From NCBI GenBank assembly GCA_965220745.1, contig CBDCQT010000010.1:96001-160000 (forward strand): a DNA stretch of 64,000 bases, given 5' to 3'. Origin of the DNA: Alphaproteobacteria bacterium. GTDB taxonomy: Bacteria; Pseudomonadota; Alphaproteobacteria; UBA828. The notes under the pieces were generated by a model. The model saw only the letters and a program-made list of their open reading frames with translations, searched no databases and had not been told where the DNA came from. The translations under genes and the position numbers were made by a program. Every line of letters begins with the position of its first letter. Positions within the stretch are counted from its first letter, which is position 1. Shown here piece by piece: positions 475-48,237 of the stretch.

Positions 475-861
475 TCAGGCGCCCCCTCCCAGTAGATGTG
501 CGTTGATCTGATCGAGCTGCTTGTCGAGCCCGGCGATCATCTTGTCCATGCCGTCGAGGGTCGCGCGGAGCGCCGCGATCTCCCCCTGAACCGCCGTGAC
601 AGAGCGTCCGAGAGTTGCGAACTCACGGGCGTCGGGAAGGGATTCGAGCGCGGTGGAGAGCTTGACCAGACCGCGCTCGACGGTCTCCATGCGCGCGCCC
701 AGGGCGCCGACGCCGGTGTCGCGCCTCTCCAGGTCGCTGACGCTCTTGGTGGTAACGGCGCCGGCGGATTCGAGCCGGCGCACGCGCACGAAGAGGCCGA
801 CGCAGGCGGCGACGATGGCGCCGACCACGCCGCGCGCGACCCACGTCTCGAGATCGCTCAT
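475..861 (-). CDS. Mu-like prophage DUF2730-type membrane-anchored coiled-coil protein
   Basis: MSDLETW..., N-terminal TM followed by coiled coil ending 'LESLPDAREF...QINAHLL'; ATGA overlap with the holin stop; typical position after lysis genes in Mu-like phages. Confidence 0.7.
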   Translation of the reverse strand: MSDLETWVARGVVGAIVAACVGLFVRVRRLESAGAVTTKSVSDLERRDTGVGALGARMETVERGLVKLSTALESLPDAREFATLGRSVTAVQGEIAALRATLDGMDKMIAGLDKQLDQINAHLLGGGA

Positions 862-1388
862 CGACCGGCCGCCCCGCCCTCGCGCGAACGCCGCTTCTCG
901 ATCTGACGGGCGCCGAACCACCAGAGCATCGCGGCGGTGAAGAGATAGAGCACGGTCTCGACGATGCGGGGCCGGAGGCTTACGGCCGCGAGATCGGAGG
1001 CGCCGAGCAGGAAGTAGATCGCGCCCACGAGGGCGAAGAGGCTCCAGGTGAGCGCCGGCCGCGTGAGGCCCCGCACCACGTCGACGAGCTGCATGGCCCA
1101 GCCCTCGCCGGGTTTGGACCAGCGCCGGGCGGCTTCGCGGTAGGAAGCCTCCATGGCCTCCCACTCGGCCCGCTCGCGGGTGGCCTGAGCCTCGATGGCG
1201 GCATGGGCGGCCGCACCCTCTGCCTCGGCCTTGGCGAGCTCGATGTCGAGACGGCGCAGGTCCAGCTCCTGGGCGTGCCGCTGGCGCGACTGGAAGAAGT
1301 CGACCACGGCCGACAGCGCCGTGCCGAGCAGCCCGGTTGCGCCGCCGGTGAGCACCGAGACGCCGAAGTTGAAAAGCGTTTCAAGCAT
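858..1388 (-). CDS. Holin-like protein (3TM / GTA-holin type)
   Basis: N-terminal hydrophobic segment, charged middle, 'VRGLTRPALTW' and C-terminal 'WWFGARQIEKRR' motifs; GGAG RBS. Confidence 0.7.
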   Translation of the reverse strand: MLETLFNFGVSVLTGGATGLLGTALSAVVDFFQSRQRHAQELDLRRLDIELAKAEAEGAAAHAAIEAQATRERAEWEAMEASYREAARRWSKPGEGWAMQLVDVVRGLTRPALTWSLFALVGAIYFLLGASDLAAVSLRPRIVETVLYLFTAAMLWWFGARQIEKRRSREGGAAGR

Positions 1389-1854
1389 GGGACTCTCCTA
1401 TGCGCCCTACCGCTTCGCTACTTGAGGGCGGGTTGATCTCCAGTTCGAAGGGTTGGTCCGCGGCCCAGTCCATGAGGTGGCGGAAGGCCGTGCGCGAGGC
1501 GAGCACCGCCACCTGCTGGCGCCCCTTCACGCTCAACCGCCCCCGGCGGAGACCGGGGAGCAGGCAGCCCTGGGTGTGGGTATGCCAGCCGCGCTCGACG
1601 TCGCCGCCGAGATTGCCGGCGTGGAAGAGGATGTAGCTGCGGCCCGGTACCTGAGTCACCAGCAGGCAGCGCCGGTGGCGCGGCGAAAGGTGCGGCACCA
1701 CCTCGTAGAGCCCGGCCGGGATGCAGGAGCGGTTGCGCCGGTTGCCGCGCCAGGGCGGTTCCATGATCCAGGTGGGCGAGAGGCCGGGGCCGCTCAGGAC
1801 CCCGAGTGTGCCCTGGTCGCTTTCGTGCCGCCGTGTGAGGGTCGCCCGTTGCAT
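1381..1854 (-). CDS. DUF5675-family protein, putative phage endolysin/peptidoglycan enzyme
   Basis: 'TLGVL...MEPPWRGNRRNRSCIPAGLY...VPGRSYILFHAGN...TQGCLLPG' pattern; lies next to a holin; start at ATG 1854. Confidence 0.75.
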   Translation of the reverse strand: MQRATLTRRHESDQGTLGVLSGPGLSPTWIMEPPWRGNRRNRSCIPAGLYEVVPHLSPRHRRCLLVTQVPGRSYILFHAGNLGGDVERGWHTHTQGCLLPGLRRGRLSVKGRQQVAVLASRTAFRHLMDWAADQPFELEINPPSSSEAVGRIGESHA

Positions 1855-1906
1855 GGGGCGATCATGGCGGGGTGCGCCCCGCCCGTGCACCGCACCATGG
1901 TCCGGG
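1852..1906 (-). promoter_or_regulatory. Putative Mor/C-activated late promoter, copy 1 (lysis operon)
   Basis: Minus strand CCCGGACCATGGTGCGGTGCAC-N18-CATGAT-N6-ATG; same spacing as the copies at 19861 and 21323. Confidence 0.75.
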
Positions 1907-1937
1907 TTCTACCGACCGCGTGCGCGTCGCCTTGCGG

Positions 1938-2480
1938 TCAGTCTACCAACCACTTCTTGCGCCAGAACTCGATCGCGTTGAGCGCCATGGTCGGGCCGAT
2001 AAGGTCGGGTGAGGCGCCGAGCGCCATGCGGCGCGGCGGGGGCGTGTCCGCGCCTTCCCAGGGTAACGGGCCCTCCCAGACGATCTTGTTCTCGATCGCG
2101 TAGAGCGCACAGTCGGGCCGCGCGGCGGGGTAAGCCTTCGCAACAGCCTCGCGGCACTGCTTGAGCGCCCGGTGCTCGTATTGGACATCCCTGATCGGCC
2201 CGGCCCAGATGTGGTCGAGGAGATGGCAGCCGCCTGTCGCGCAATAGACGTACCAGCCGCCCCGCCCGTTGCGGTCGAGCGCGAGCACGGCGTAGCCGCC
2301 GGGCCGCGCATGGCGCAGGTAGTCGCCCCACCACGCCGTGAACCAGGCGGGCGCACCGGCATGCAGCGCATCCGCGGAGGCTGCGGTGGCGCGAATCTTG
2401 TGGCCCTCGACGTGCGTGATCGGCGTGCAGGCGGCGAGCGCGACGGCCGCCAGAACGCCGATCAGAGCTGCGCGGCGCAT
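1938..2480 (-). CDS. Lipoprotein of unknown function, translationally coupled to the repressor
   Basis: MRRAALIGVLAAVALAAC lipobox; TGATG overlap with the repressor stop. Confidence 0.7.
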   Translation of the reverse strand: MRRAALIGVLAAVALAACTPITHVEGHKIRATAASADALHAGAPAWFTAWWGDYLRHARPGGYAVLALDRNGRGGWYVYCATGGCHLLDHIWAGPIRDVQYEHRALKQCREAVAKAYPAARPDCALYAIENKIVWEGPLPWEGADTPPPRRMALGASPDLIGPTMALNAIEFWRKKWLVD

Positions 2481-3382
2481 CACTCGAAGGTGCGAGAGGC
2501 CCAGCGCACCTCGCCGATCACCTCCGCCTCCCGCGGCCACGGCACCGGCTGCCAGGACGGGTGATCGCTCGCGAGGAACCATTGCCGGCCGCGCCGCTCC
2601 AGCCGCTTCACGACCAGGCCCTCGCCGGTGGTGACCACGAAGATGCGCCCGGAACGGCGGCGGGTGCGGTCGCGGTCCACCAGGATCTTGGAGCCGGCCG
2701 GCAGCGTGGGCTCCATCGACTCGCCCCGCACCGAAATCACCACGCAGCGCGTCGGGTCGATGCCTTGGCCATCGAGCCAGTCACGGCGGAACCAGACCGG
2801 ACCCTTGACCGGTGCATCGTCGAGATTGACCGTGCCGCCGCCTGCCGCCGCTGCGACCTCGCGCGTCCCCACCGAGCGCGCGCCGGGCGGCACGCCGTTC
2901 TCGTTCGCTGCAGCGACCGGCCGGGCGTCGGAGTCGGTGAAGCCCGCCACAGGGGGCGCGCCCAGCTCCTCCGGGATCGGGTCGCCGCCAGCGTCTGCGA
3001 CGAGCCCCACCAGCGCCCGGACCGGCCCCTCCAGGCTGAATATCGGCACCGCCGGCGGGGCTGCCGGCAATGCACCGCCCCACTCCGTACCCGTCAATTC
3101 CGACAGTGCTCCCGCTCCCCCCAGGCCGACCTCGTCGTCCTCATCGTTGGCGCGCGCATCGGCAGGCGGACCGATCGAAAGTGTGAGCCCGAGCGCAGCA
3201 CAGATCTCGGCCGCGCGGTCCACCGAGGGCGCCTGTTGGCGGGTCGGGTCCAGAATTCCCCGCAGCGTCCAGGGCCGGAGCCCGCGGGCCGCCTCGAAGC
3301 GCCGCGCGCCCACGCCGGCGGCCGCCAGCGCCTCGCGCACGGCACGGCGGATCTGCTCGCTCGGTCGAGTCGATTCGTTCAT
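2480..3382 (-). CDS. CI-like phage repressor (N-terminal HTH plus S24 peptidase)
   Basis: 'VRGESMEPTL' catalytic Ser, 'VVKRL' Lys, 'AAAGGG' cleavage-site region, 'EVIGEVRW' C-terminus; divergent from a small cro-like gene. Confidence 0.9.
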   Translation of the reverse strand: MNESTRPSEQIRRAVREALAAAGVGARRFEAARGLRPWTLRGILDPTRQQAPSVDRAAEICAALGLTLSIGPPADARANDEDDEVGLGGAGALSELTGTEWGGALPAAPPAVPIFSLEGPVRALVGLVADAGGDPIPEELGAPPVAGFTDSDARPVAAANENGVPPGARSVGTREVAAAAGGGTVNLDDAPVKGPVWFRRDWLDGQGIDPTRCVVISVRGESMEPTLPAGSKILVDRDRTRRRSGRIFVVTTGEGLVVKRLERRGRQWFLASDHPSWQPVPWPREAEVIGEVRWASRTFE

Positions 3383-3456
3383 GTGCACAATATAGCACAA
3401 ACGGTTGTGCATAAAAGTGCTTGATATCGTCATGTGTGATCGTGCATATATGTCTT
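3383..3456. promoter_or_regulatory. cI/cro divergent promoter-operator region
   Basis: AT-rich; palindrome GCACAA-ACGG-TTGTGC (3395-3410) and repeated GTGCA half-sites; CTTGAT...CATATA-N6-ATG rightward and TATATT-N6-ATG leftward. Confidence 0.7.
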
Positions 3457-3708
3457 ATGGTGCACAGTGACCAACTGCTCGTTACCCTCATCCACGCCTT
3501 TGCGGACGCCCGCAGCCTCTCCGTCTCCTACGCGTCGCGCCTCTTGACCGGCAGCGGCGACACGGTCGACCGCGTCACCGCCGGCGCGAGCATCACCGCG
3601 CGCCGTGCCGAGACCATCCTCCGCCGCGCCTCGCAGAACTGGCCCGCCGATCGCGCCTGGCCGGCGGACATTCCCCGCCCCGCGCCCGCGCCGAAAACCA
3701 ATAAGTAA
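3457..3708 (+). CDS. Cro/Ner-like small phage regulator
   Basis: 83 aa, divergent from cI; 'SQNWPADRAWPADIPRP' C-terminus as in alphaproteobacterial Mu-like phage Cro-like proteins. Confidence 0.7.
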   Translation: MVHSDQLLVTLIHAFADARSLSVSYASRLLTGSGDTVDRVTAGASITARRAETILRRASQNWPADRAWPADIPRPAPAPKTNK

Positions 3709-3730
3709 TGGATTTGAAAGGGAGAACCCA

Positions 3731-4276
3731 ATGGCCGGAACCCATGCGCCACCAGTGACCTCTATGGAGGACATCGTCGCCTTCGCCCGGAGCTTCGCCG
3801 CTGCGCGGGCGACGACCGAGGCGCTGGCCGAAGACATCAAGGCGTTGCAACGCAAGGCCCTGGCTGGCCGGCTTCGTGCGCTGCGTAACCGCATTGCCGA
3901 GCAGTCGGCATCCGAAGACGCGCTGCGCACCGCAATCCTGGCCCGGCCGGACCTCTTCGTCAGCCCGCGCACGATTACGGTGGACGGCATCAGGCTCGGG
4001 CTCCGCAAGCAGCCCGGCGCCATTTCGCTGGACGACGAGGCGCTGACCATCGAGCGGCTGCGCGCGCGCTTTCCAGACCAAGCCGAGGCGCTGATCCGGG
4101 TCAAGGAGACGCTCGACCGCAGCGCGCTCCGCAAGCTCCCTGCGGGCGAGCTCGCGCAGATCGGCGTCACCATCGCGAAGGCGTCCGACGAAGTGACCAT
4201 TGTCGCCGCGCAAGGCGATCTCGACCGCATCGTCGCCGCCTTGCTGGACGACCACGCACCGGCGGAGGCGGCATGA
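3731..4276 (+). CDS. Mu Gam-like host-nuclease inhibitor (DNA end protection)
   Basis: Coiled-coil N-terminus, then 'PDLFVSPRTITVDGIRLGLRKQPG...LIRVKETLDRSAL...IGV'; GGGAGA RBS. Confidence 0.75.
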   Translation: MAGTHAPPVTSMEDIVAFARSFAAARATTEALAEDIKALQRKALAGRLRALRNRIAEQSASEDALRTAILARPDLFVSPRTITVDGIRLGLRKQPGAISLDDEALTIERLRARFPDQAEALIRVKETLDRSALRKLPAGELAQIGVTIAKASDEVTIVAAQGDLDRIVAALLDDHAPAEAA

Positions 4277-4902
4277 GGAGCGGACGCCAGCGCACCATGC
4301 GGCGGGAGGAGGCGCGGCCGGCGGCAGTGCCGGGCGCCCGCGCCCGCGCCGAGCGGCTGTGGGACGAAACGATCGTGCAGCCCTACGCAGCCGAGAGCGA
4401 TGCGAGCGAATCAAACGGCGCTCCCCTCCCTTCCGGGCCGGCGACGCGCAAGCTGCGGGCGCTCTGGCACAGCGCGTACCACCTGGGCCTGATCCACGAC
4501 CGCTCGGACGACGCGCTCGGTGCTTGGCTCCGTCGCCTCGCGCACCTCGATGGGAACGCCTGCGCCGAACCGGCCCGCCTCGACCGCCCCATCCAGGCAC
4601 TCAAGGCCTGGCTCGCGCGCGGCGCCGGGGTGGACTGGCGGCCGCACGTCTCCCTCGGGCAGGACGGGCGGGTGCGGGAGACGCGCCGCCCGCGGGCGCG
4701 CGTTCTGGAGGCGCAGTGGCGCCTGCTGCATCGCCAGGGGCGGGTGCGGATCGGAAGTGACGCGGCTCTCGGCGCCTACGCCGCCCGCCTTGTCGGCCTG
4801 GGCCGCACTGATTCGCATCTCGCTCTCAGCAACGCTCAGACCGATGCCCTGATCCGCCACTTCGGCAAGTGCATCCGCGCGGCGAGCGAACGCCATGACT
4901 GA
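4273..4902 (+). CDS. Mu GemA/gp16 (DUF1018)-like protein
   Basis: 'RKLRALWHSAYHLGLIHDRSDDALGAWLRR...IQALKAWLAR'; overlaps gam (ATGA) and mor. Confidence 0.75.
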   Translation: MRSGRQRTMRREEARPAAVPGARARAERLWDETIVQPYAAESDASESNGAPLPSGPATRKLRALWHSAYHLGLIHDRSDDALGAWLRRLAHLDGNACAEPARLDRPIQALKAWLARGAGVDWRPHVSLGQDGRVRETRRPRARVLEAQWRLLHRQGRVRIGSDAALGAYAARLVGLGRTDSHLALSNAQTDALIRHFGKCIRAASERHD

Positions 4903-5242
4903 TGCCGCGCCTCTCCCCGGCGTGCTGGAGGAGATTGCGGATATCGCGGGCAGGCCGACGGCGATCGCGATGGCGCTGGCCTGGGGCGGGCGGGAGGTTC
5001 ACATCCCCAAACCGCGCTATCTGGCGCGACACCCCGACCACCCCCTCGCCCGCCTGCTGGAGGCCGAGGGGACCGCGTTCCAGGTCGCCGACTATCTCGG
5101 CGGTTCCGGCGTCTACCTGCCGCGGGCGCGCCGTGCCTGCGCCGTCCACCTCGCCGCCGCCGGCGCGACCGCCGTCGAGATCGCGGCGCGCCTCTCCCTC
5201 TCCCCCAGCGCGGCGCGGCGCTACATCAGGGGCGTGTCCTGA
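4895..5242 (+). CDS. Mor/C-family phage transcription activator
   Basis: 'LPGVLEEIADIAGRPTAIAMALAWGGREVHIPK...YLGGSGVYLP' plus C-terminal HTH 'AVEIAARLSLSPSAARRY'; follows gemA as in Mu. Confidence 0.8.
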   Translation: MTDAAPLPGVLEEIADIAGRPTAIAMALAWGGREVHIPKPRYLARHPDHPLARLLEAEGTAFQVADYLGGSGVYLPRARRACAVHLAAAGATAVEIAARLSLSPSAARRYIRGVS

Positions 5243-5456
5243 GGCAGCCGCCGCGCGCATGAGTGCTATGCTTGAGAGGTAGCCCGTCCGGCGTTGCACA
5301 TTAGTCGCGTCATAACCACATCACGGGTGGCGGCGCAGTGCCCACATTCCCGCGTGGGAGCGGGCCGTGCCGCCACAGAGTCAACAAGGGCCACGCACCA
5401 GCGAGAGGTCCATCGAGCGGCAGCCACCGCAGCCCGGTCAGAAAAGGAACGTCGTC

Positions 5457-5951
5457 ATGTCCCAGACATTGCACCCCACGAAGATCGACATTGCCGACAA
5501 CACGCGTGCCGCGATGGTCGCGCTGCTCAACGCCCGCCTGGCTGACGCGGTGGACCTCGCCACCCAGATGAAGCAGGCCCATTGGAACGTGAAGGGCCCC
5601 TCCTTCATCGCGCTGCACGAGCTCTTCGACGCGATCCACGTGGCGGTTCAGGGCCATGTCGACAACCTCGCGGAGCGCATTACGGTGCTGGGCGGCACCG
5701 CGCGGGGAACTGCGGCCGTGGCCGCGGCGGCCTCAGGGCTCCCCGCCTATCCGCTGGAGATCACGGCGGGCACCGACCACGTGGAGGCCGTGAGCGTGGC
5801 GCTGGCCACCTTCGGCAAGGGCATCCGCGCCGCCATCGCCGAAGCGGGCGATGCCGGTGATGCCGACACCGAGGACCTGTTCGTCGAGGTCTCGCGCGAC
5901 ATCGACAAGAACCTCTGGCTGGTCGAGGCCCACGCCCAGGCGCAACGCTAG
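5457..5951 (+). CDS. dps: DNA starvation/stationary-phase protection protein Dps
   Basis: 'KQAHWNVKGPSFIALHELFD...DNLAERI...DKNLWLVEAH'. Confidence 0.95.
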   Translation: MSQTLHPTKIDIADNTRAAMVALLNARLADAVDLATQMKQAHWNVKGPSFIALHELFDAIHVAVQGHVDNLAERITVLGGTARGTAAVAAAASGLPAYPLEITAGTDHVEAVSVALATFGKGIRAAIAEAGDAGDADTEDLFVEVSRDIDKNLWLVEAHAQAQR

Positions 5952-6021
5952 AGCACGACCTGATGGGATCGCATCCGCTCGTTGCGCGGCACGCTTCTTG
6001 CATGCAGCGTGACCCGAGAAC

Positions 6022-6068
6022 CCCCCACCTCACCCCGGCCCTCTCCGCCCCCAGGGGCGGAGAGGGAG
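6022..6068. repeat. REP-like palindromic element (CCTCACCCCGGCCCTCTCC...GGAGAGGG)
   Basis: Hairpin CCCTCTCCGCCCC-CA-GGGGCGGAGAGGG; the left part recurs at about 12412-12434. Confidence 0.65.
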
Positions 6069-6328
6069 AGTAAGCCGGCGCCGCCTGGAATCCCGCCTGT
6101 CTCACTTATCTCACTTATCCCACTGGTCTCACCGAATCCCGGCGAATCCCGCCTGAACTTTTGGCGTGCCCGTCTCACGCGGGAGAGCGCGATGCCGCGT
6201 GGGACGCGACTCTCTTTCCTCGCTGACGCTGCCGGTAGCGATCCCGCTGCCAGCGAAGAGCGGTTGACTTGGCGCCGCCCGATGCGTCAGGATTTTACCC
6301 AGAGTGAAATCAGGGGGCGCCTCGGGAG

Positions 6329-6949
6329 ATGGCCAAGAGTTCGGCGAAGGCACAGTCGGCGGAGGCGGATGCCCCCTTGGGAAAGCGGCTGCGCGACCGC
6401 CGCCAGCAGCTCGGGCTGACCCTCAAGCAGGTCGCCGACGGGGCCGGGCTTTCGGTCGGCTTCATCTCCCAGATTGAACGAGGACTAAACGCGCCCTCGC
6501 TTTCGTCGCTTGCCGCCATCTCCGGCGTGCTGGGCACGCACGTCACCGAGTTTCTCGCCCCGCCGCGCCCCGATGCGCCGTTTACGCTGATGGGAGAGCG
6601 GCCGAGCTTCACCATTGAGAAGCTCGCGCTCCGCTACGAGCGCATTTCGGCGTCCTTCCCCGGCAGCGTTCTCAACTGCGTCATCATCCACAAGCCGCCG
6701 GGTCATCGCTCCGAATGGATACGGCACGAGGGCGAGGAGCTGTTCTACATCCTGGAAGGAGCCATCACGGTGGAGACCGAGGACGAGAGCACCGTGCTCG
6801 AGGCCGGCTCCTCCATCCATTTCAAGTCCACGCGGCGGCATTCGAGCTGGAACCACGGCACGTCGACGGCCGTGATTCTGCACGTCTGCACATCGGACAT
6901 TTTTGGGGACCACAACAGGCGGCCACAGGCGGCCGAGATCGAAGAGTGA
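6329..6949 (+). CDS. XRE-family regulator with cupin domain
   Basis: HTH 'LTLKQVADGAGLSVGFISQIERG', cupin 'HEGEELFYILEG...IHFKSTRRHSSWN'. Confidence 0.92.
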   Translation: MAKSSAKAQSAEADAPLGKRLRDRRQQLGLTLKQVADGAGLSVGFISQIERGLNAPSLSSLAAISGVLGTHVTEFLAPPRPDAPFTLMGERPSFTIEKLALRYERISASFPGSVLNCVIIHKPPGHRSEWIRHEGEELFYILEGAITVETEDESTVLEAGSSIHFKSTRRHSSWNHGTSTAVILHVCTSDIFGDHNRRPQAAEIEE

Positions 6950-6997
6950 GACTAGTGACCCGTTCGAGAAGTTTCTATTTGTCCACGCCGCCCCTCA

Positions 6998-7106
6998 CGT
7001 CATGGCCGGGCTTGTCCCGGCCATCCACGTGTTTTTCGTGCGGCAGGGGCAAAGAACGTGGATGCCCGGAACACCCCCGGACTTGATCCGGGGGCCGGGC
7101 ATGACG
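6998..7106. repeat. Alphaproteobacterial REP-like nested palindrome (GTCATGGCCGGGCTTGTCCCGGCCATCCACG...CGTGGATGCCCGG...CCGGGCATGAC)
   Basis: Inverted termini CGTCATG/CATGACG with internal hairpins; extra CCCCCGGACTTGATCCGGGGG hairpin in the right arm. Confidence 0.75.
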
Positions 7107-7198
7107 ACGTGAGAGAGAGGCGCGGTTGTTGAGATCGCTCTCCGGCATGACCGTATGCGAATTAACTTCAAAAGCAGGAGACAAGGGAGAACCATGAC

Positions 7199-8791: not shown

Positions 8792-8796
8792 CGGTC

Positions 8797-8839
8797 AACG
8801 ACGGGGCGGGCATGCTGTCGACCTGCCCGCCCCGTCGTT
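8797..8839 (+). terminator. Intercistronic stem-loop after the binding-protein gene
   Basis: Perfect 16-bp stem AACGACGGGGCGGGCA / TGCCCGCCCCGTCGTT. Confidence 0.65.
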
Positions 8840-8851
8840 TAGAGTGGGGGC

Positions 8852-12391: not shown

Positions 12392-12470
12392 ACCCGTCGA
12401 TGACTGTCGCCCCCTCCTCACCCCGGCCCTCTCCTCCCCTCGATTTCCCTTGCCCCGAGGAAGTCCGCTG

Positions 12471-14543: not shown

Positions 14544-14562
14544 GCGAGACGGCGGCAGCACG

Positions 14563-16230
14563 ATGAACGCGATGACCAACGATCCGATCACCCTCGAGAT
14601 CATCCAGAACTCGCTGCAGAGCGCAGCCGACGAGATGTTCGCCGCCATGAGGAAGACGGCGATGAGTTCGATCATCTACGAGGTGCTCGACATGGGCACC
14701 GGAATTACCGACGCCAGGGGCGAGATCGCCTGCTCCGGCGCCGGCATCCCGGCCTTCGTCGGCGTGCTCGACAAGGCGGTGGCGGTGATCGTGGAGAAGT
14801 TCGACGAGCCCGGCGCCATCGAGCCCGGCGACGTCTTCGTCACCAACGACCCCTACTACGGCGGGGTGACGCACCTGAACGACATCGTGGTCGCGATGCC
14901 GGTCTTCGCCGACGGCCGGATCATCGCCTGGACCTCGAACATCGCGCACAACTCCGACGTGGGCGGCATGGCGCCGGGCTCGCTCACAGGCGAGGCGACG
15001 GAGATCTTCCAGGAAGGACTCAGGCTGCCGGCCATCAAGATGATCTCCAGGGGCGAGCCGATCCGGCCGGTGTTCGAGATCATCAAGGTCAACTCGCGCA
15101 TGCCCGACGTGCTCGAAGGCGACGTCTGGGCGGCGATCGCGTCCGTCCGTATCGGCACCGCGCGGCTCACGGAGATCGCCGAAAAATATGGCGCCGCCAC
15201 CTTCGAGCAGGCGATGACGGCCTTCATGGAATACGGCGAGTGGGTCTCCCGCGCGGCGCTCACGACGCTGCCCAAGGGCACCTTCTCGCTCGCGGAAGAG
15301 CAGGACGACGGCCAGGTGTACAACGTCGAGATCGCCATCCGGGACGAGGAGTTCGTGGTCGATCTCAGGAACAACCCCGACCAGGCAACCAACCCGGTCA
15401 ACACCAGCCGGGACGGGGTGATGGTGGCGGCGCAGATGATCTTCAAGTCGCTGACCGACCCCTATTCGCCGTGCAACGCGGGCTCCTTCCGCCCGATCCG
15501 CCTGCTGACGCGCGAGGGCTCGGTGTTCCACGCCGAGGAGCCGGCGCCCATCGGCTTCTATTACGAGATCGACCTGCGCGCCTACGATCTGATGTGGCGC
15601 TGCCTCGCCCAGCACATGCCGGAGCGCCTGGCGGCGGGGCATTTCGCCTCGGTGTGCGGCACCTTCATCGGCGGCATCCACCCGGATACCGGCCGCCAGT
15701 ACACGATCATCGAGCCGCAGCTCGGCGGCTGGGGCGGCCGCGAGGGCCGCGACGGCAACAATGCGATGTTCTGCGGCTTCCACGGCGAGACCTTCAACTG
15801 CCCGGCTGAGGTCAACGAAGCCCGCAACGGCCTCTACGTCGACCAGATGGCGCTCAACCTGGAGCCCGGCGGCGAGGGCCAGTACACCGGCGGGCGCGGC
15901 ATCGTCATGGACTATCGCGTGCGCGCCAACGACGGATTCCTGACAGTCGGCTACACGCGCTCCAAGTTCCCCGCCTGGGCGCTCGACGGCGGCAACGAGG
16001 GCTCGCCCAACTACGTCGAGTTCATTCCGAACGAGGGCGAGCGCCAGCGCTTCGCCTTCGTCTCCGGCCTCAAGACGCAGCGGGACGACGTGATCCGCGT
16101 GGTGACCGGCAACGGCGGCGGATTCGGCGACCCGAAGAAGCGCGATCCTGCGCGCGTGCGCCGGGACGTGCGGAACGGCCTGATCAGCGCCGAGCGCGCG
16201 CGGGAGGTCTACGGCGTGACGATTGAGTAA
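14563..16230 (+). CDS. Hydantoinase B/oxoprolinase family subunit
   Basis: 'DPITLEII', 'NDPYYGGVTHLND', 'HNSDVGG', 'EIFQEGLRLP', 'GGGFGDP'. Confidence 0.93.
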   Translation: MNAMTNDPITLEIIQNSLQSAADEMFAAMRKTAMSSIIYEVLDMGTGITDARGEIACSGAGIPAFVGVLDKAVAVIVEKFDEPGAIEPGDVFVTNDPYYGGVTHLNDIVVAMPVFADGRIIAWTSNIAHNSDVGGMAPGSLTGEATEIFQEGLRLPAIKMISRGEPIRPVFEIIKVNSRMPDVLEGDVWAAIASVRIGTARLTEIAEKYGAATFEQAMTAFMEYGEWVSRAALTTLPKGTFSLAEEQDDGQVYNVEIAIRDEEFVVDLRNNPDQATNPVNTSRDGVMVAAQMIFKSLTDPYSPCNAGSFRPIRLLTREGSVFHAEEPAPIGFYYEIDLRAYDLMWRCLAQHMPERLAAGHFASVCGTFIGGIHPDTGRQYTIIEPQLGGWGGREGRDGNNAMFCGFHGETFNCPAEVNEARNGLYVDQMALNLEPGGEGQYTGGRGIVMDYRVRANDGFLTVGYTRSKFPAWALDGGNEGSPNYVEFIPNEGERQRFAFVSGLKTQRDDVIRVVTGNGGGFGDPKKRDPARVRRDVRNGLISAERAREVYGVTIE

Positions 16231-16265
16231 TTCGAGACAGTCGATTCGGACAACGGGAGGACCGC

Positions 16266-17075
16266 ATGAAGGCCAACGCCCCCCTCAAGCTGATGTACCT
16301 CAACCCGGTCGGCACCGATGCCTACGATGCCGTCTTCGCCGACATGGCACGCACCTACAAGCAGCCCGGCACGGAGGTGCACATCACCTGCCTTGCGGAT
16401 CCGGGCGGCAGCTTCACCCACATCGAATACCGCGCCTACGAGACCATCGTCTCGCGCGGGATCATCCGGGCGACGCGGCAGGCGGCGCGCGAGGGCTTCG
16501 ATGCGCTCGCCATCGGCTGCTTCTACGACACCGGGCTGCACGATGCCCGCGAGATTTCGGGCGAGATGATCGTGACCGCGCCCTGCCTCGCCTCCTGCGA
16601 GATCGCGGCGAGCCTCGCCAACCGCTTCGGCATCATCGTCGGCCGGCGCAAGTGGGTGAACCAGATGAACGCGGTTGCGCGCGAACACGGCTACGGCGAG
16701 CGCCTCAGCGGCTTCTACCACGTGGAGCTCGGGGTCAACGACTTCCAGACCGATCACGCGGAGACCGAGCGCCGGCTGGTCGCGGCGGGGCGCAAGGCGG
16801 TGGAAGAGGACTACGCCGAGGCGCTCATCCTCGGCTGCACGCTGGAGATCGGATTCTACCGCGAGGTGGAAAGGGCGGTCGGTGTCCCCGTCATCGACCC
16901 CTCCATCGCGGCTATGAAGCGCGCCGAGTACGCCGCGAACCTCAAGCGCCAGTGCGGCTGGGTGCCGAGCCGCATGTGGTCCTGCGAGGCGCCGCCGGAG
17001 GAGGAGATCGCGCGCTTCGGCGGCTTCGACGATGGCGATGCCTTCGCCCAGCGTCTCGTCGTTGAGGCGGAGTGA
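16266..17075 (+). CDS. Asp/Glu/hydantoin racemase family protein
   Basis: 'LNPVGT', catalytic Cys pair 'IGCFYDTG' and 'LGCT', 'VPVIDP'. Confidence 0.9.
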   Translation: MKANAPLKLMYLNPVGTDAYDAVFADMARTYKQPGTEVHITCLADPGGSFTHIEYRAYETIVSRGIIRATRQAAREGFDALAIGCFYDTGLHDAREISGEMIVTAPCLASCEIAASLANRFGIIVGRRKWVNQMNAVAREHGYGERLSGFYHVELGVNDFQTDHAETERRLVAAGRKAVEEDYAEALILGCTLEIGFYREVERAVGVPVIDPSIAAMKRAEYAANLKRQCGWVPSRMWSCEAPPEEEIARFGGFDDGDAFAQRLVVEAE

Positions 17076-17195
17076 CGGATGGATGGCGTAACAATCGCGT
17101 GTGATACGCCGATAAGACGACCCTTCCCAGGTGCAGGAGGCGTTTGGAGGCGCCATACTTGACCCGCTGAGGCAATCGAGCGGCATGATCCGGTC

Positions 17196-18290
17196 ATGCG
17201 TGGACTGATCTTCGGTGTCGTCGCGCTGCTCGCGGCCAGCTTGCTCCCCCTTTCCGCGACGCAGGCGGCATTCAAGCTGGAAGGCAGGCCCAAGGTCGCG
17301 ATGCTCCATCTCGGCACCGTCAACGACGGCGGCTGGTCGGAGGCGCTCGACCGCGCACGGGTCAAGACCGAGGAGGCGCTGAGGCTCAAGATCGCTGTCA
17401 GCCAGCGGGTGCCCGAGGAGTGGGCGATCATCCTGCAGCTCGTCGATCGCTATGTGCGCGAGGGCTACAACATCATCATCGGCACCTCCTGGGGCCACAG
17501 CGACGCCTTGCGCGAGGCCGCGCGCAGGTACCCCAACGTGGCCTTCCTGAACTGCGCCGGTGCGACCACGGCGCCCAATCTGGAGAGCTTCTACGCCCGC
17601 ACGTATCAGGGCTGGTACCTGGCCGGGATCATCGCCGGTCATCTGACCCGGACCGAGAAAATCGGCGCCCTCGGCGGCTATCGGCTGGGTCCCGTGACCT
17701 GGGACCTCAACGCCTTCTTGCGCGGGGCCCAGTCGGTCAATCCCGCCGTCGAGATGATTGGCATCTACGTCAACACCTGGTTCGACCCGAGCAAGGAAAC
17801 GCAGGCGGCCGAGAGCCTGCTGGCGCAGGGAGTCGACGTGCTGGGATCGAACCTGAGCGCGCCGGGGCCGCACCGCGCCTTCGAGGATCGCGGCAAGTGG
17901 TCGATCGGCTTTCAGATCGACATGTCCGAGGAGGCGCCGAAGGGCGTCGCGGCCTCGATGGTCTACACGTGGGAGGCGTACCTGATTCCCACCATTCAGG
18001 CGATCGTCGAAGGCACCTGGACGCCCGAGAGGCCGAGCTGGTGGAGGGGCATCGAGACCGGCGTCTTCGACGTGGAGCCCATCGCGGCGTGGGTGCCACG
18101 CGCGGCGGTGGCGGACGTCGAGCGGGCGCGCGCGAAGATGATCGCGGGCGAGCTCGATCCCTTCGAGGGACCGCTCTACCGCAACAACGGCACGCTCGCG
18201 GTGCCGGAAGGCAAGGTTCCCTCCGACCGAGAGCTGTGGGGGATGGACTACCTGATCGAGGGCGCCGTCGACATCTCACTTGCGGAGTGA
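17196..18290 (+). CDS. BMP-family ABC substrate-binding protein (nucleoside/purine type)
   Basis: 'DGGWS', 'IIIGTSWG', 'NTWFDPSKE', signal peptide. Confidence 0.88.
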   Translation: MRGLIFGVVALLAASLLPLSATQAAFKLEGRPKVAMLHLGTVNDGGWSEALDRARVKTEEALRLKIAVSQRVPEEWAIILQLVDRYVREGYNIIIGTSWGHSDALREAARRYPNVAFLNCAGATTAPNLESFYARTYQGWYLAGIIAGHLTRTEKIGALGGYRLGPVTWDLNAFLRGAQSVNPAVEMIGIYVNTWFDPSKETQAAESLLAQGVDVLGSNLSAPGPHRAFEDRGKWSIGFQIDMSEEAPKGVAASMVYTWEAYLIPTIQAIVEGTWTPERPSWWRGIETGVFDVEPIAAWVPRAAVADVERARAKMIAGELDPFEGPLYRNNGTLAVPEGKVPSDRELWGMDYLIEGAVDISLAE

Positions 18291-18329
18291 AGCGGTCAGA
18301 CGACCGAGAGGTACCTCGCGGACCCGTCG

Positions 18330-18515
18330 TCAGGCGGCCTCTCCCTCCTGCACGGGATCGAAGTCGGCCTTGGGCGCCCGGCAATCGGGGCAGCACCAGT
18401 CATCCGGGAGGTCCGCGAACGGCGTGTCCGGCGGCGTCTCGCGCTGCGCTTCGCCCTTGGCGGGATCGTAGACGTAGCCGCACCAGCGGCACCGATAGCG
18501 CGTCATGGGAGACAT
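18330..18515 (-). CDS. Rubredoxin
   Basis: 'YRCRWCGYVYDP...TPFADLPDDWCCPDCRAPKADF'. Confidence 0.92.
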   Translation of the reverse strand: MSPMTRYRCRWCGYVYDPAKGEAQRETPPDTPFADLPDDWCCPDCRAPKADFDPVQEGEAA

Positions 18516-18585
18516 CGCCGCGGCATGGCCGTGGGAGAAACGCGCGGCCGGCCCGTCTCGGACCGGCCGCAAGTCGTCAACTTGA

Positions 18586-19755
18586 CTAGTGAATGCCGAG
18601 CTTCTCCGCAGCCATCTGCGTTCCCTTGATGCGGGACTCGATCTTCTGGAACGCCACGTCGCGGGCGTAATCGGGCGAGCCGTGGTTGGGCTTCACGTCG
18701 ATGCTGAAGGGCGAGAAGCCGCAGTCGTCGGTAGACGCAATCTGCTCCTTCGGCAGGTGATTGGCGGCCGCGATGAGCTGCTCGCACACCTCTTCGGGCG
18801 ATTCCACCCGCGGGTTCTGCGGGTTGATGACGCCGATGTAGGCCATCTGCGTGACGCCGTTGGCGTCGGTGCGGATGCTCGCCGCGATGTCCTTGTAGAC
18901 CTGCTCCTGGTTCCGCTCGCTCTTGAACTGGATCATGAAATAGCCGGCATTGAGCTGGAACATGCTCGGCAGCAGGTCGTTGTAGGGCACGTCGGCGCTG
19001 TGCACCGAATCGCAGTCGCCGCCCGGGCAGGTGTGGATGCCGATGTTCACCCGCTCCTCCGCCGTGAAGCGGTCGAGCACCGCGTTGATCAGATCGATGA
19101 AGTGGGGAAGCATCTGGCGGCCGGTCCAGGGATTGCGCGAATCGTTGCGGCAGGAGAGCCGGCCCTCGGTGAAGTCGATGGAGACCCGTACCGCGCCGGC
19201 AGCGAAGGCCTCGCGCACGTCCTTCTCGCACTCGTCGATCAGGTCGGCCTCGAACGCCTCGCGCGAGTAGCCCTCGATCTCCTCGTCGAGGGGGTAGAGC
19301 AGCGCGAGCATCGAGGGCGCGATCACCGCCTGCTTCATCGGCTTGGTCGCGGACTTGATCGAGAGCTTGAGGGAATCGGCCGCGAAGCTCTTGTAGCGGA
19401 ACGGGCCGCCGGTGAGACGCGGCAGCTGGCGATGGTGGCCATCGGCGAAGATGGCGAAGTACTGGCCGCCGCCCGCAAGATGGTCGGCGAGGCCCGTTCC
19501 CGCCAGGGTGTCGGTGATGGGATAGGTGGCGAAGCTCGACCAGCGTTGCTCTCCGTCGGAGACGATAGGCGAGCCGGCGGCCTCCATGCGCGAAATCGAA
19601 TCGCGCACCGCCTCCTCCTGCTCGGCCTCGAGATCGGCTTTCGAAATGTCGCCCGCATCGTAGGCGGCGTAGGCGGCCTGAAGCTTGGACGGGCGGGGCA
19701 GCGAGCCCACGGGTTCGGTCGGAATTCCGGTGGCAGTACGGGGATCGTAGGTCAT
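18586..19755 (-). CDS. Cobalamin-independent methionine synthase II family (single-domain MetE-like)
   Basis: 'TEPVGSLPRP', 'SDGEQR', Zn-site 'IHTCPGG', 'DDCGFS'. Confidence 0.88.
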   Translation of the reverse strand: MTYDPRTATGIPTEPVGSLPRPSKLQAAYAAYDAGDISKADLEAEQEEAVRDSISRMEAAGSPIVSDGEQRWSSFATYPITDTLAGTGLADHLAGGGQYFAIFADGHHRQLPRLTGGPFRYKSFAADSLKLSIKSATKPMKQAVIAPSMLALLYPLDEEIEGYSREAFEADLIDECEKDVREAFAAGAVRVSIDFTEGRLSCRNDSRNPWTGRQMLPHFIDLINAVLDRFTAEERVNIGIHTCPGGDCDSVHSADVPYNDLLPSMFQLNAGYFMIQFKSERNQEQVYKDIAASIRTDANGVTQMAYIGVINPQNPRVESPEEVCEQLIAAANHLPKEQIASTDDCGFSPFSIDVKPNHGSPDYARDVAFQKIESRIKGTQMAAEKLGIH

Positions 19756-19860
19756 CGGTCATCTCCCGGTATTCGTTGATGCTTGCCGCCATCGTCCCAT
19801 AGGAGCGGTGCTGCGTTCAACGCATAGGCAGCGCGACGGGACTCGCGCCCGATCGCGTGC

Positions 19861-19915
19861 CCCGCACCTTGGTGCGATGGTCGTTGGCGCCGGGTGCCGT
19901 CATGGTAAGGGCATG
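19861..19915 (+). promoter_or_regulatory. Putative Mor/C-activated late promoter, copy 2 (terminase)
   Basis: CCCGCACCTTGGTGCG-N24-CATGGT-N6-ATG; same 55-nt geometry as copies 1 and 3. Confidence 0.72.
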
Positions 19916-21289
19916 GTTGGCCCTGCTTCTAGCGAATCGCTCCACCTCTCCCTCCTCCCCTATCAGGCCCGCTGGGTGTCGGACCCGGCAGGTTTCAAGG
20001 TGATCGAAAAGGCGCGGCGCATCGGCATCTCCTGGGCCGAGGCCTACGACGCGGTAATGCACGCGGGCTCGAAATGGGGCGGCAACGTCTATTACCAGGC
20101 CTACAACCTGGAGATGACCCGGGGCTTCATCGAGGACTGCGCCGGCTGGGCAGAGAGGTTGCAGAGCAGGGCCGGTGCGCTCGGCGAGACCTTGATGGTG
20201 GAGGATGGGCGTGCCGTGCGGGCCTTCCGCATCGCCTTCGGCTCAGGCAACGAAATCCTCGCCATGACTTCGGCGCCGCGCGCCTTCCGCTCCAAGGGCC
20301 GGCCCGGCGATCTTGCCATCGTCGACGAAGCGGCCTTCGTCGACGACCTCGGCGAAGTGCTGAAGGCGGCGCTCGCCTTCCGCGTCTGGGGCGGGCGGGC
20401 GCACGTCATCAGCACCCACAACGGCGAGGCCAACCCCTTCGCGACGCTCTGCCGCGAGATCGACGAGGGCGCGCGGCCGGGCACGCTGCACCGCACCACG
20501 CTCAAGGAGGCGCTGGCGCAGGGTCTCTTTCGCCGCATCGTCGAGGGGCAGGGCCGCCCCTGGTCGGCCGCCGCCGAGGCCGAATGGGAGGGCGCGCTCA
20601 GGGCCGAATACGGCAGCCATTCGGGCGAAGAACTCGACTGCATCCCCGCCGCCGGTGGCGGGGCCTGGCTCGCGTGGGAGGCGATCCGCGCCTGCGAAGA
20701 CCCCACCGCAGGCGATCCCGCCGCCTTCGCCGGCGGCGGCGCCACCGTCGGCGTGGACGTGGCGCGGCGGCGTGACCTCTGGGTCGCAGCGGTACTCGAG
20801 CAGGTGGGCGACGTGCTCTGGCTGCGCGAGCTGGCGGTCCGCCAGGGCATCCCCTTCAGCCAGCAGCGGGCGATCGTGGGCGACCTTGCGGCGCGCTATC
20901 GGCCGGTGCGCATCGCCGTGGACCAGACCGGCATGGGAGAGGCCGTGGTGGAGCAGCTGCAGGAAGACCTGGGCCGGACCGCGGTCGAGGGTGTGCTGAT
21001 GTCCGGGCCGCGCAGGCTCGATGTGGCAACGGCGCTGCGCGAGGCGGTGGAGGATCGCCGCCTCCGCATCCCACCCGACGCGGAGCTTAGGCGCGATCTC
21101 CATGCCGTCCGCGCCGAGGCCGGGCCGACCGGGGCGCCGCGGCTGCTTGCCGAACGCTCGGGCACCGACGGCCACGCCGACCGATTCTGGGCTCTGGCGC
21201 TGGCCTGCACCGCCGCCCGCGACGGCAGTGCGACCATTGGGGGTGCCAGCGCCGGCCCGCGCGCTGCTTCGCTTGCGGGGTTCTACTGA
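19913..21289 (+). CDS. Mu gp28-like terminase large subunit
   Basis: 'LLPYQARW', 'EKARRIGISWAEA', Walker B 'IVDEAAF', 'ISTHNG..NPF', RNase H-like 'GVDVARRRDL', 'DQTGMG', 'GHADRFWALALA'. Confidence 0.92.
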   Translation: MVGPASSESLHLSLLPYQARWVSDPAGFKVIEKARRIGISWAEAYDAVMHAGSKWGGNVYYQAYNLEMTRGFIEDCAGWAERLQSRAGALGETLMVEDGRAVRAFRIAFGSGNEILAMTSAPRAFRSKGRPGDLAIVDEAAFVDDLGEVLKAALAFRVWGGRAHVISTHNGEANPFATLCREIDEGARPGTLHRTTLKEALAQGLFRRIVEGQGRPWSAAAEAEWEGALRAEYGSHSGEELDCIPAAGGGAWLAWEAIRACEDPTAGDPAAFAGGGATVGVDVARRRDLWVAAVLEQVGDVLWLRELAVRQGIPFSQQRAIVGDLAARYRPVRIAVDQTGMGEAVVEQLQEDLGRTAVEGVLMSGPRRLDVATALREAVEDRRLRIPPDAELRRDLHAVRAEAGPTGAPRLLAERSGTDGHADRFWALALACTAARDGSATIGGASAGPRAASLAGFY

Positions 21290-21322
21290 CCGGCAGAAGG
21301 CGACCGAGGCGGGCGAAGAGGC

Positions 21323-21377
21323 CCCGCACCATGGTCCGGTGCACAGGCCGGGCCGGAGTCCCGATGATCGGGGCATG
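21323..21377 (+). promoter_or_regulatory. Putative Mor/C-activated late promoter, copy 3 (portal)
   Basis: CCCGCACCATGGTCCGGTGCAC-N18-GATGAT-N6-ATG. Confidence 0.75.
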
Positions 21378-21427
21378 ATGATTGCCCGATCCTCCGCGTC
21401 TCTACCGGCCAACCGGAGCCTCGTCTG

Positions 21428-22666
21428 ATGGCGGCGGCCCTCGCGACCCGGCTCCGCCGGCTGCTCTCTCCCTCCCGTGCTGGCACGCCGGCAGGGCCGC
21501 CCTCTGGCGAGGTCGCCGCAGCCAGCATCGCTGGCCGCCTCCAGCCCTATATCGGTGAGCTGCCGCTCAACCCGCGCCAGCCCTCGCGCTATGCCGAACG
21601 CTACCGCGACGAGGGCGCGGCACTCCGCATCTACCGCGACATCCTGCGGGACGAGCGCTGCCAGGCTGCGCTCGACCAGCGCCTCGATGCCGCCATCGCG
21701 CGGCCCTGGACGGTCGAGCCCGGCGGCGACGGCCCGGACGATCGTGCCGCGGCCGACGACCTCGCCCGCCAGCTCGATGGCGTCGGCTTCGATGCCGTCA
21801 GCCGCCAGCTCCTGCACGGGGTCTGGTACGGCTACGCCATCGCCGAGGCGCTCTGGGCCCGCGCGGGCGACCGCGTCGTGCTCGACCGCCTCGTGGTGCG
21901 CGCGCCCGACCGCTTCCGCTGGTCGGCGGAGGGCCAGCCCCTGCTCCGCACCGACGCCCACCCCCTGGGCGAGCCGCTGCCGGAAGCAAAATTCGTGATC
22001 CTTCGCCGCCCCGGCGAGCACGGCGACCTGCCCCACGGGCCGGGCCTCGCGCGCTGGTGCTTCTGGCCGGTCTGGCTCAAGCGCCACGGGCTCAAGTTCT
22101 GGTCCGTCGCGCTCGAAAAGTTCGGCGCTCCCGGCGTCAAGGGCACCTATCCCAGGAACGCGAGCGCCGAGCAGAAGGCCGACCTGCTCGACCTGGTGCA
22201 GTCCTTCGCCACCAGCCTCGGCGTCATCCTGCCCGAGGGCCAGGAGATCGAGATCGTCGAGAGCGCGCGCCGCGCCGGCGGCGACTTCCAGGCCTTCGTC
22301 GCCTATCTCGACCGTGCCATCGCGACCACGATCCTCGGGCAGTCCGCCACCACCGACATGGGGCCCTGGCGCGGCACCGCCGAAGTGCAGCGCGACGTGC
22401 GCGACGAGACCGTCGCCGCCGACTGCCGCCTGCTCGACGACGCGCTGGGCGGCACCGTCGCCCGCTGGCTCACTGCCTGGAACTTTCCGGGTGCGGCGAC
22501 GCCCCGCATCCGCCGCGACGCATCACCGCCGGAGGACCTCGACGCCCGCGCCCGCCGCGAGGCCGTCATCGCCAGCACCAGCGGCCTGCGTCCCACCCGA
22601 TCCCACATCGAACGCACCTATGGCGGGAAGTGGGAGGCGGCGCCGCCTGCATCTGGGGCGGCGTAA
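21428..22666 (+). CDS. Mu gp29-like portal protein (DUF935)
   Basis: 'IYRDILRD...QR', 'YGYAIAEALW', 'GLARWCFWPVWLKRHGLKFWSVALEKFGAP', 'ILGQSATT', 'WNFPG'. Confidence 0.92.
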   Translation: MAAALATRLRRLLSPSRAGTPAGPPSGEVAAASIAGRLQPYIGELPLNPRQPSRYAERYRDEGAALRIYRDILRDERCQAALDQRLDAAIARPWTVEPGGDGPDDRAAADDLARQLDGVGFDAVSRQLLHGVWYGYAIAEALWARAGDRVVLDRLVVRAPDRFRWSAEGQPLLRTDAHPLGEPLPEAKFVILRRPGEHGDLPHGPGLARWCFWPVWLKRHGLKFWSVALEKFGAPGVKGTYPRNASAEQKADLLDLVQSFATSLGVILPEGQEIEIVESARRAGGDFQAFVAYLDRAIATTILGQSATTDMGPWRGTAEVQRDVRDETVAADCRLLDDALGGTVARWLTAWNFPGAATPRIRRDASPPEDLDARARREAVIASTSGLRPTRSHIERTYGGKWEAAPPASGAA

Positions 22667-22687: not shown

Positions 22688-22731
22688 TCAAGCCTCGGCG
22701 TATTCGAGCAGGAGGTCCTTGGCTTCGACCG
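22688..22731 (-). repeat. Duplicate of the last 44 bp of pyc (direct repeat with 23202-23245)
   Basis: 42/44 identical; both differences are synonymous in the pyc frame. Confidence 0.92.
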
Positions 22732-48234: not shown

Positions 48235-48237
48235 AGC

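Follow-up and report, generated by a model that had tools for sequence, protein, structure and literature searches.

Dispersed Mu-type modules sharing a Mor-type box probably form a domesticated particle system resembling gene transfer agents in an alphaproteobacterial genus

We present here an analysis of a 64,000-nt stretch of contig CBDCQT010000010.1 (positions 96,001 to 160,000; hereafter the window, with positions being those of the whole window unless a contig is named) from the genome of an alphaproteobacterium of the UBA828 lineage, denoted G000. Based on the analysis, it is probable that a Mu-type siphophage has left at least four modules on the chromosome, two of them in the window, which together make up a domesticated, Mor-controlled particle system of the kind of a gene transfer agent (GTA). 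The data fit a history in which the phage would have been captured before most of the genus diverged, stripped of its transposition and replication genes, scattered over the chromosome, kept by selection and inherited vertically.

An earlier note on this DNA had claimed that Mu-type genes stand in the window as two separate blocks among ordinary host genes, and this is borne out by Pfam matches at 475-5242 (block A) and 19913-22666 (block B), with metabolic genes between them. The phage-derived features of the two blocks are as follows (ORF, open reading frame).

475..855, minus strand: DUF2730 protein, of the Mu gp25-region family, the last gene of the operon at the lysis position (PF10805, E 7e-5, 23.3 bits, just below the cut-off of 24.9)
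858..1388, minus strand: 176-aa membrane protein (phrog_6637, E 1.2e-21, a family with no assigned function)
1381..1854, minus strand: DUF5675 protein (PF18925, E 6.7e-25)
1938..2480, minus strand: lipoprotein-like gene, read from the sequence, with its ATG overlapping the repressor stop (TGATG)
2480..3433, minus strand: CI/LexA-type repressor with a self-cleaving Peptidase_S24 domain (PF00717, E 1.7e-16)
3383..3465, no strand: AT-rich control region of the divergent genes, in which GTGCA(C/T)A words recur, likewise read by eye, a putative operator
3466..3708, plus strand: small ORF at the Cro/Ner position, with no family match
3731..4276, plus strand: Gam, a DNA-end binding protein (PF07352, 29.5 bits against a cut-off of 28.3)
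4273..4902, plus strand: GemA (PF06252, E 2.8e-17)
4895..5242, plus strand: Mor/C-family activator (PF08765, 27.7 bits against a cut-off of 24.9) with a C-terminal helix-turn-helix (HTH_23, 26.3 bits)
19913..21289, plus strand: large terminase (TerL) of Mu gp28 type (Terminase_6C, E 1.5e-20)
21375..21428, plus strand: mini-ORF of 17 codons, predicted to be leaderless, starting 31 nt past a box described below, with its TGA overlapping the portal ATG
21428..22666, plus strand: Mu-type portal, 412 aa (Portal_Mu, PF06074, E 7e-89), a single copy in the genome

The run of gam, gemA and mor that the earlier note had called is thus recognised by PF07352, PF06252 and PF08765. Gam is 35% identical to Gam of the Mu-like phage YPCBV-1, and its gene lies directly 3' of the small ORF, at the place where MuA/MuB would lie. 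The Mor/C-family gene is the sole copy, giving the one match in the whole G000 genome; against the PDB sequences the protein gave no Mor or C match at E<=1, the matches obtained being at chance level. TerL shares 36% identity with the TerL of YPCBV-1 across 477 residues and is 79-98% identical in all nine species examined, in all of which the layout of mini-ORF and portal is also the same. Between the end of mor and the ATG of TerL there are 14.67 kb, occupied by genes for Dps, an HTH-cupin regulator, a peptide ABC transporter, hydantoinase A/B, a racemase, a Bmp-type binding protein and a weakly MetE-like protein, while genes for an MFS transporter and an E1 dehydrogenase lie to the left of the window and pyruvate carboxylase (pyc) lies to the right of the portal. 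The Mu ORFs have the high GC content that had been ascribed to them, but they are slightly above the host in this respect, with 70-75% in the Mu blocks against 66-69% for the contigs.

The remaining parts of a particle were sought by comparing the proteins of YPCBV-1 with the whole G000 genome and then by using Pfam and PHROGs. Capsid genes elsewhere in the genome, the lack of which the earlier note had named as a finding that would speak against it, are indeed present, together with tail genes, in a single operon that was joined across contigs C10 and C13 with the near-identical species G011 as guide.

C10:9787-1, continuing at C13:1-5046: head-tail operon of 15 genes, on the same contig as the window and 86 kb upstream of it

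Its genes 1-5 encode a protease, a scaffold/cement protein, a Mu-T-type capsid protein, an unassigned 326-aa protein and Phage_tail_S; genes 6-10 a tail terminator, the major tail protein, DUF6631, a 269-aa tape measure and a Gp80-like protein; and genes 11-15 an unassigned 359-aa protein, DUF1833, a DUF6950-like protein, a 1217-aa GpJ-like tip protein and a collar fibre. The head genes matched phrog_976 and phrog_1005 (I/T type). Moreover, the small terminase, Mu gp27 (PF11985, E 4e-26), is found at ten places on five contigs of G000. The GTA_TIM family (PF13547), a tail protein of the type found in the GTA of Rhodobacter capsulatus (RcGTA), gave no match in G000, with the positive control in Caulobacter being matched. 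Nor was a MuA transposase found in G000, where the only three Mu-transposase-C (PF09299) matches are all of IS21 type; no separate search for MuB was made. The earlier note had stated that the window itself lacks MuA, the small terminase, gp30 and the head and tail genes, and this stands, with the correction that a gene with rve and Mu-transposase-C domains is present at 44337-46073. This gene was considered as MuA and rejected, because IstB follows it and the genome has three copies, so that it is of IS21 type. It is noted that the IS21-family element (IstA with rve and Mu-transposase-C, then IstB) spans 44337-46840 of the window and recurs at C10:~185380 and C1:~1320, giving at least three copies.

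The modules are joined by a common promoter-like signal. The dyad CGSACCWTGGTSCG has seven strand-matches in the window at no more than one mismatch against 0.48 expected, a number that none of 100 shuffles reached, and its sites are 1891-1904, 19863-19876 and 21325-21338. It is part of a 21-nt box, CCGGACCATGGTGCGGTGCAC, which at no more than one mismatch has 37 copies in G000, with the reversed pattern having none. An ATG lies exactly 31 nt past the box in 29 of the 37 copies, and 31 copies carry A and T at positions -11 and -7, respectively, counted from that ATG, with the consensus CAnnAT. The box, followed by a -10-like hexamer, precedes all four Mu operons (lysis, terminase, portal and head-tail) and nine gp27 genes; over the whole genome 44 copies of the 12-mer dyad are present where 4.5 are expected, and the module regions have it nowhere except ahead of the four operons. 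The claim that each late module carries a copy of the same promoter can therefore be extended to every Mu-derived operon and to the dispersed small-terminase genes, with the refinement that most copies ride on a repeat family, as discussed below. The boxes in the window are as follows.

1885..1905, minus strand: box of the lysis operon, an exact CCGGACCATGGTGCGGTGCAC match, with the DUF5675 ATG at 1854 exactly 31 nt after it
19862..19882, plus strand: weaker box of the terminase, with 5 mismatches, the dyad GCACCTTGGTGC being kept, then 18 nt, CATGGT, 6 nt and the ATG at 19913
21324..21344, plus strand: box of the portal, with the dyad flipped and 2 mismatches

The lysis-operon box is found at the orthologous place in the species G004 and G003, a dyad box precedes TerL in eight of nine other species, and the portal box is conserved in all nine. 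In the head-tail operon the box is followed by a 157-nt leader. None of the four Mu operons has its box in the repeat family; these four boxes are in unique sequence. According to PMC4390567, Mor of phage Mu binds two inverted 5-bp repeats centred at -43.5 of the middle promoter, and PMC2582627 gives the Mu late promoters a -10 hexamer and no -35. If transcription starts here at the A of the conserved ATG, the messages would be leaderless and the dyad centre would lie at -43.5, a geometry that would fit a Mor dimer site. The messages of the lysis operon, the terminase and gp27 would then be leaderless.

As regards the copies on the repeat family, the repeat-bearing boxes are those of the gp27 cassettes and of about 30 short derivatives. 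On either side of the gp27 cassettes stands a 100-nt repeat, for which BLAST gives 46 hits in G000 and which is dispersed in many copies in every sister genome. A cassette adjacent to a tRNA (C3:15501-17500 of G000) is shared with G011 and G006, which have it at the corresponding place, whereas in G008 and G004 a single 100-nt repeat takes its place, and from this polymorphism it follows that gp27 cassettes are gained or lost. The more distant species G003 has only eight distinct boxes, five of which precede the portal, the lysis genes, the head-tail operon and two gp27 genes, with one lying by a protease-like fragment. Rfam at gathering score gave no family in window positions 1-24000, and near one gp27 cassette only a tRNA, so that the box-bearing repeat belongs to no known RNA family. 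It is conceivable, although we regard it as doubtful, that the gp27 cassettes (Mor box, leaderless gp27 and flanking 100-nt repeats) are mobile packaging-start modules that set the DNA sampling of the system. If this is true, cassettes at 10-18 places per chromosome would provide many headful start points, so that the whole genome rather than one region would be packaged and transferred, and the roughly 30 short box-bearing repeats would be deletion derivatives of the cassettes. The sampling of a GTA would then be set by a transposing element carrying a packaging site or small terminase, a thing that no described GTA is known to have.

We then consider the distribution of the system in 20 other species of the genus, each represented by one genome; these species are related, and the counts are thus not independent trials. 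The portal is found with 84-96% identity over at least 391 aligned residues and with no stop in 14 of the 20, is partial in G002 (residues 4-370), has a weak partial match of 45% identity in G016 and has none in G012 and G017; in 20 genomes of other genera it has no match. The capsid gene is full-length with 90-99% identity in 15 species, the match in G004 starting at residue 52, and was not found in G012, G016, G017 and G018. Mor is present with 76-99% identity in 14 of the 20, gp27 with 1-18 copies and the box with 7-50 copies each in 17. When G000 is included, the box and gp27 are in 18 of 21 genomes each, the portal in 19 (one of them weak) and the capsid in 17. G012, G016 and G017 have none of box, gp27, capsid, Mor and portal, except for the weak portal match in G016. 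In 13 of the 20 species the portal or its remnant lies beside pyc. That is, the modules occur in most close relatives and keep their host flanks, rather than being absent from them, which the earlier note had given as a way in which its reading could fail. In the comparison of nine species, 220 of 234 gene-by-species cells were matched, and at least eight of the 14 blank cells are on contigs outside the comparison or at a contig end.

The distances between the modules differ among the species. In G000 they are 15 kb and 86 kb apart, and in G011 they are 76 kb and 1.66 Mb apart, the larger distance being that between block A and the portal. G003 carries its portal on a separate contig; in this species mor and dps are followed by the lysis genes, gp27 and TerL, and the repressor is followed by the head-tail operon. 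In G002, TerL lies between the repressor arm and the protease gene. Despite these differences in gene order, genes and boxes in the three species are intact. It might be supposed that the split layout arises from an artefact of assembly or binning that joined phage DNA to host DNA, all the genomes being metagenome-assembled by their titles. The junctions of mor with dps, of the MetE-like gene with TerL and of the portal with pyc, however, recur in independent assemblies, and a DNA contig of a sequencing run that may itself be the source sample covers window positions 1-5499 with no difference. In seven of the 20 species, including G004 with its one-contig chromosome of 6.17 Mb, a single contig bears both block A and the portal, at a distance of 16-23 kb, and a misassembly, about which the earlier note had also been concerned, is therefore ruled out; we give the artefact a negligible probability.

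Selection on the genes was estimated from the ratio of nonsynonymous to synonymous substitution rates (dN/dS) by the Nei-Gojobori method for G000 against G004, G003 and G002, which is crude at 90% GC at third codon positions. The SDR match of G003 (30% identity) was left out of the host set as non-orthologous. The ranges are as follows.

Capsid: dN/dS 0.07-0.16
Tail terminator: dN/dS 0.13-0.20
Mor: dN/dS 0.20-0.24
Portal: dN/dS 0.20-0.23
Terminase: dN/dS 0.21-0.27
Gam: dN/dS 0.29-0.36
Other Mu-derived genes: dN/dS up to 0.68
Host genes (dps, MetE-like, pyc, hisD, SDR): dN/dS 0.06-0.17

The ratios of the Mu-derived genes (0.07-0.68) are thus away from the value near 1 that had been named as contrary to a kept system, and their dS of 0.19-0.99 is like that of the host genes (0.30-0.86). 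Moreover, identity to G000 tracks that of pyc, with Spearman coefficients of 0.76 for the portal and 0.92 for the capsid (n=13, the relatives not being independent). These data point to vertical inheritance under purifying selection, as judged by dN/dS, shared host flanks and rank correlation with pyc. By contrast, one could take the modules for inert remnants of a decaying Mu-like prophage split by rearrangements, as the loss of the transposase and of Mu F, the loss of pieces in some species and the insertion of a repeat in the protease gene of G000 would suggest. However, at dS of about 0.2-1.0, which argues against near-clonality, the frames of capsid, portal and terminase are open in every full-length copy and nearly all of the gene-by-species cells are matched, dN/dS is far below 1, and the promoters are conserved at orthologous sites. 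The inert-remnant reading is already contradicted by this, and we consider it very improbable.

An indication of the origin of the modules is given by G002, which carries an apparently intact Mu-like myophage prophage (C1:186-212 kb, in the stretch C1:186001-222000) with an 846-aa MuA, a GcrA-like gene, a Dam methylase, gp27, TerL, a 506-aa portal, Mu F and a contractile sheath. As in the domesticated set, the repressor and the head-tail arm lie on one strand, while the other strand carries a ner-like ORF, gam, gemA, mor, the lysis genes, gp27, TerL and the portal; identity between its proteins and their counterparts in the domesticated set is 36-80%. This unusual divergent two-arm layout is common to both and is therefore native to the lineage. 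The domesticated set differs from the prophage in having no MuA, Mu F, 506-aa portal, contractile sheath or Dam methylase. Between the small ORF and gam the prophage has 6.2 kb, including MuA, whereas in the domesticated set of G000, G011, G004, G003 and G002, as read from the coordinates, gam directly follows the small ORF. No box at three or fewer mismatches was found in the intact prophage. Note also that G013 has three terminase-portal pairs, one at C9:185004-188258; such pairs, 51-61% identical to the window portal, occur three times per genome. The G013 portal copies (51-52% identity) were considered as an intact reference phage and set aside in favour of YPCBV-1 and the G002 prophage, the TerL-portal pair having no obvious head module at the locus viewed.

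The presence of intact Mu-type prophages in the same genus allows another explanation, that the parts are kept as a defence against related Mu-type phages, where Mor/C of the invader fires the boxes, gp27 and perhaps portal and terminase misdirect packaging, and the lysis genes kill the cell, as in a satellite or abortive-infection system. The amplification of gp27 to 1-18 copies per genome, each with a box, and the presence of the tRNA-locus cassette in three species and its absence in two agree with this. On the other hand, most species keep their own mor and repressor; the whole head-tail operon is kept, with dN/dS of 0.07-0.26 for capsid, terminator and tail tube, which interference alone would not need; and the intact prophage of G002 has no box at three or fewer mismatches. 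A defence function is thus rather unlikely in our view.

For the domesticated particle system that we favour, the following working can be proposed. The S24 self-cleaving repressor of CI/LexA type would keep the divergent early operon (small ORF, gam, gemA and mor) off. Upon induction, probably by DNA damage, Mor would be made and would bind the dyad GSACCATGGTSC, of which the architecture is seen in the sequence, centred about 43.5 bp upstream of the presumed start. Mor would then turn on the lysis operon, the terminase, the portal (via the coupled mini-ORF), the single 15-kb head-tail operon and the dispersed gp27 genes. Short-tailed capsids would be assembled, filled with host DNA by the headful and released by lysis. 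The function that would need all these parts is the making of tailed, DNA-filled particles. With the modules separated by anything between 15 kb and over 1 Mb, or placed on different replicons, and with the replication and transposition genes absent, no such particle could carry the whole system; it would therefore be GTA-like or at least a DNA-filled particle of PBSX type. In terms of membership, no module for replication, transposition or integration is present; as to the Mu-like phages, the portal, the gp27/gp28 terminase and the I/T head genes place the set among them, and MuA, Mu F and contiguity are lacking.

A killer or defective particle of PBSX type would be made on SOS induction and filled with host DNA, and would serve killing, lysis or the release of public goods with no productive delivery. 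Its gene content would equal that of a GTA, the control by a repressor with an S24 domain is phage-like and not host-integrated, and the lack of Mu F together with the shortened portal could impair ejection. Against it, gam, which protects DNA ends, is retained under purifying selection, and a full set of tail-tip and fibre genes is present. The gene data do not separate such a particle from true transfer; on balance we hold the PBSX-like reading to be unlikely.

It should be noted that several observations weigh against a functional GTA-like system. The split modules, conservation, selection and shared box support the Mu-derived GTA-like reading of the earlier note, whereas its functional half, namely particle formation, host-DNA content and delivery, is putative. 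Phage_Mu_F (gp30, PF04233) gave no match in G000, its profile being positive in five other genomes. About 100 C-terminal residues that the 506-aa portal of the related intact prophage possesses are missing from the portal here, and the tape measure of 269 aa is short. A 100-nt repeat lies in frame inside the protease/scaffold gene of G000 (C10:9152-9261), the frame staying open, with the gene of G011, which has no such repeat, encoding 360 aa against 385 aa in G000. Several tail genes have dN/dS of 0.5-0.68. The portal is broken in G020 and in fragments only in G013, and the capsid gene is lost in G018. Among 43 boxes at no more than two mismatches, repeat sequence is common to 37 on the downstream side of the ATG and to 12 on the upstream side; most boxes thus ride on the repeat family, and their copy number is therefore not a count of independent promoters. 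By their titles, all the genomes compared are assembled from metagenomes. Finally, short contigs of relatives (91-97% identical) from a run labelled as metatranscriptome cover 485-808, 1006-1337, 2380-2764 and 3965-4276, and these are uninformative on starts, strand and level and may stem from DNA carry-over.

We now turn to the individual genes of block A. For the operon at 475-1854 the lysis role assigned in the earlier note is suggested by position. The DUF2730 protein is 77-97% identical in eight of the nine species examined, and so is the 176-aa membrane protein with 84-100% identity and dN/dS of 0.18-0.20, the latter being a holin/spanin candidate. The DUF5675 protein is an endolysin candidate from its gene position; in the intact G002 prophage it lies between mor, which precedes it, and gp27, which follows. 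Its AlphaFold2 model has a mean confidence (pLDDT) of 86. The protein has no sequence match in the PDB, and a fold search with the model gave no match at E<=0.001, the best hint being the L,D-carboxypeptidase Csd6 with a match probability of only 0.44. An assignment to the LAS peptidases from HxxxxxxD/HxH-like residues was tried and has no support from the fold search, and a His/Cys site like that of YkuD/Csd6 is only a hint from the model. The lipoprotein-like gene, with no Pfam or PHROG match, is found in all nine species with 58-81% identity. The predicted cI/cro switch is upheld as to the repressor, which has the GESMEP serine and the VKRL lysine in its translation and is 72-98% identical in the nine species, but not as to cro, the small ORF at that position having no family match; this ORF is nonetheless 75-96% identical in all nine, with dN/dS of 0.21-0.33.

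Next to mor lies a gene that may belong with the element.

5367..5951, plus strand: Dps/ferritin gene (PF00210)

It adjoins mor in all nine species examined, and in G003 it is inside the string of phage-derived genes, between mor and the lysis genes, so that dps is possibly a passenger of the element. Elsewhere in the window, at 22688-23245, the 3' end of pyc recurs as a 44-bp direct repeat (95% identical) on both sides of a 470-bp insert, which carries a lone antitoxin-like gene of RelB/PaaA2 type (22828-23160, minus strand) with no toxin gene seen adjoining it. To the right of the IS21 element, 47000-53000 is a low-GC island with 49-59% GC against 67%.

To our knowledge, only a handful of independent GTA lineages are known. 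A literature search at the level of abstracts brought up no GTA derived from a transposable Mu-type phage and no multi-copy gp27. With the phage activator and its box still recognisable, the whole regulon can be read from sequence. Moreover, there is a sister species with an intact relative, and species at different stages of scattering and loss. The system offers direct tests of how a selfish transposing phage becomes a device owned by its host. It also raises the question of whether amplified small-terminase genes control which DNA is packaged. The hosts appear to be uncultured bacteria, in which gene exchange is otherwise difficult to investigate.

Comparison with known systems is made as follows. 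RcGTA and its alphaproteobacterial relatives (PMC5026251) have phage-derived head, tail, packaging and lysis genes with no replication or integration genes. They are multi-locus and vertically inherited, purifying selection acts on them, and they cannot carry the full gene set that encodes them, all of which is as here. By contrast, the capsid, portal, terminase and regulator of the present system are of Mu type (PF06074, PF11985, PF08765 and phrog_1005) and GTA_TIM is missing, so that its origin, as judged from these families, is independent of RcGTA. RcGTA has a short tail, to which the short tape measure of the present system corresponds. RcGTA is controlled by the host through CtrA, GafA and quorum sensing, whereas the control here appears phage-like, with an S24 repressor and then Mor. 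In addition, the small terminase is amplified here to 1-18 copies per genome, unlike in RcGTA.

With Mu and the Mu-like siphophages, of the B3, D3112 and RcapMu type, the system has in common Gam, GemA, Mor, the gp25-region protein, gp27, gp28, gp29, the protease/scaffold I, the T-type capsid and a G-type morphogenesis protein. Activator-dependent promoters with a dyad at about -43.5, a -10 hexamer and no -35 are also Mu-like (PMC4390567 and PMC2582627), the position of the dyad here being that predicted from the conserved ATG. Unlike Mu, the present set has no MuA or Mu F (MuB not having been searched for separately) and is not contiguous; it has a single Mor/C-family protein in place of the Mor-then-C cascade; leaderless starts are predicted at three of the four operons and at the gp27 genes; and it has a fixed chromosomal position that is common to several species.

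Finally, the PBSX-type defective prophages of Bacillus are conserved, repressor-controlled and damage-inducible, package host DNA and cannot propagate. PBSX, however, is one contiguous cluster from a different phage lineage and kills rather than transfers, whereas the modules described here are scattered and come from the Mu-type lineage.

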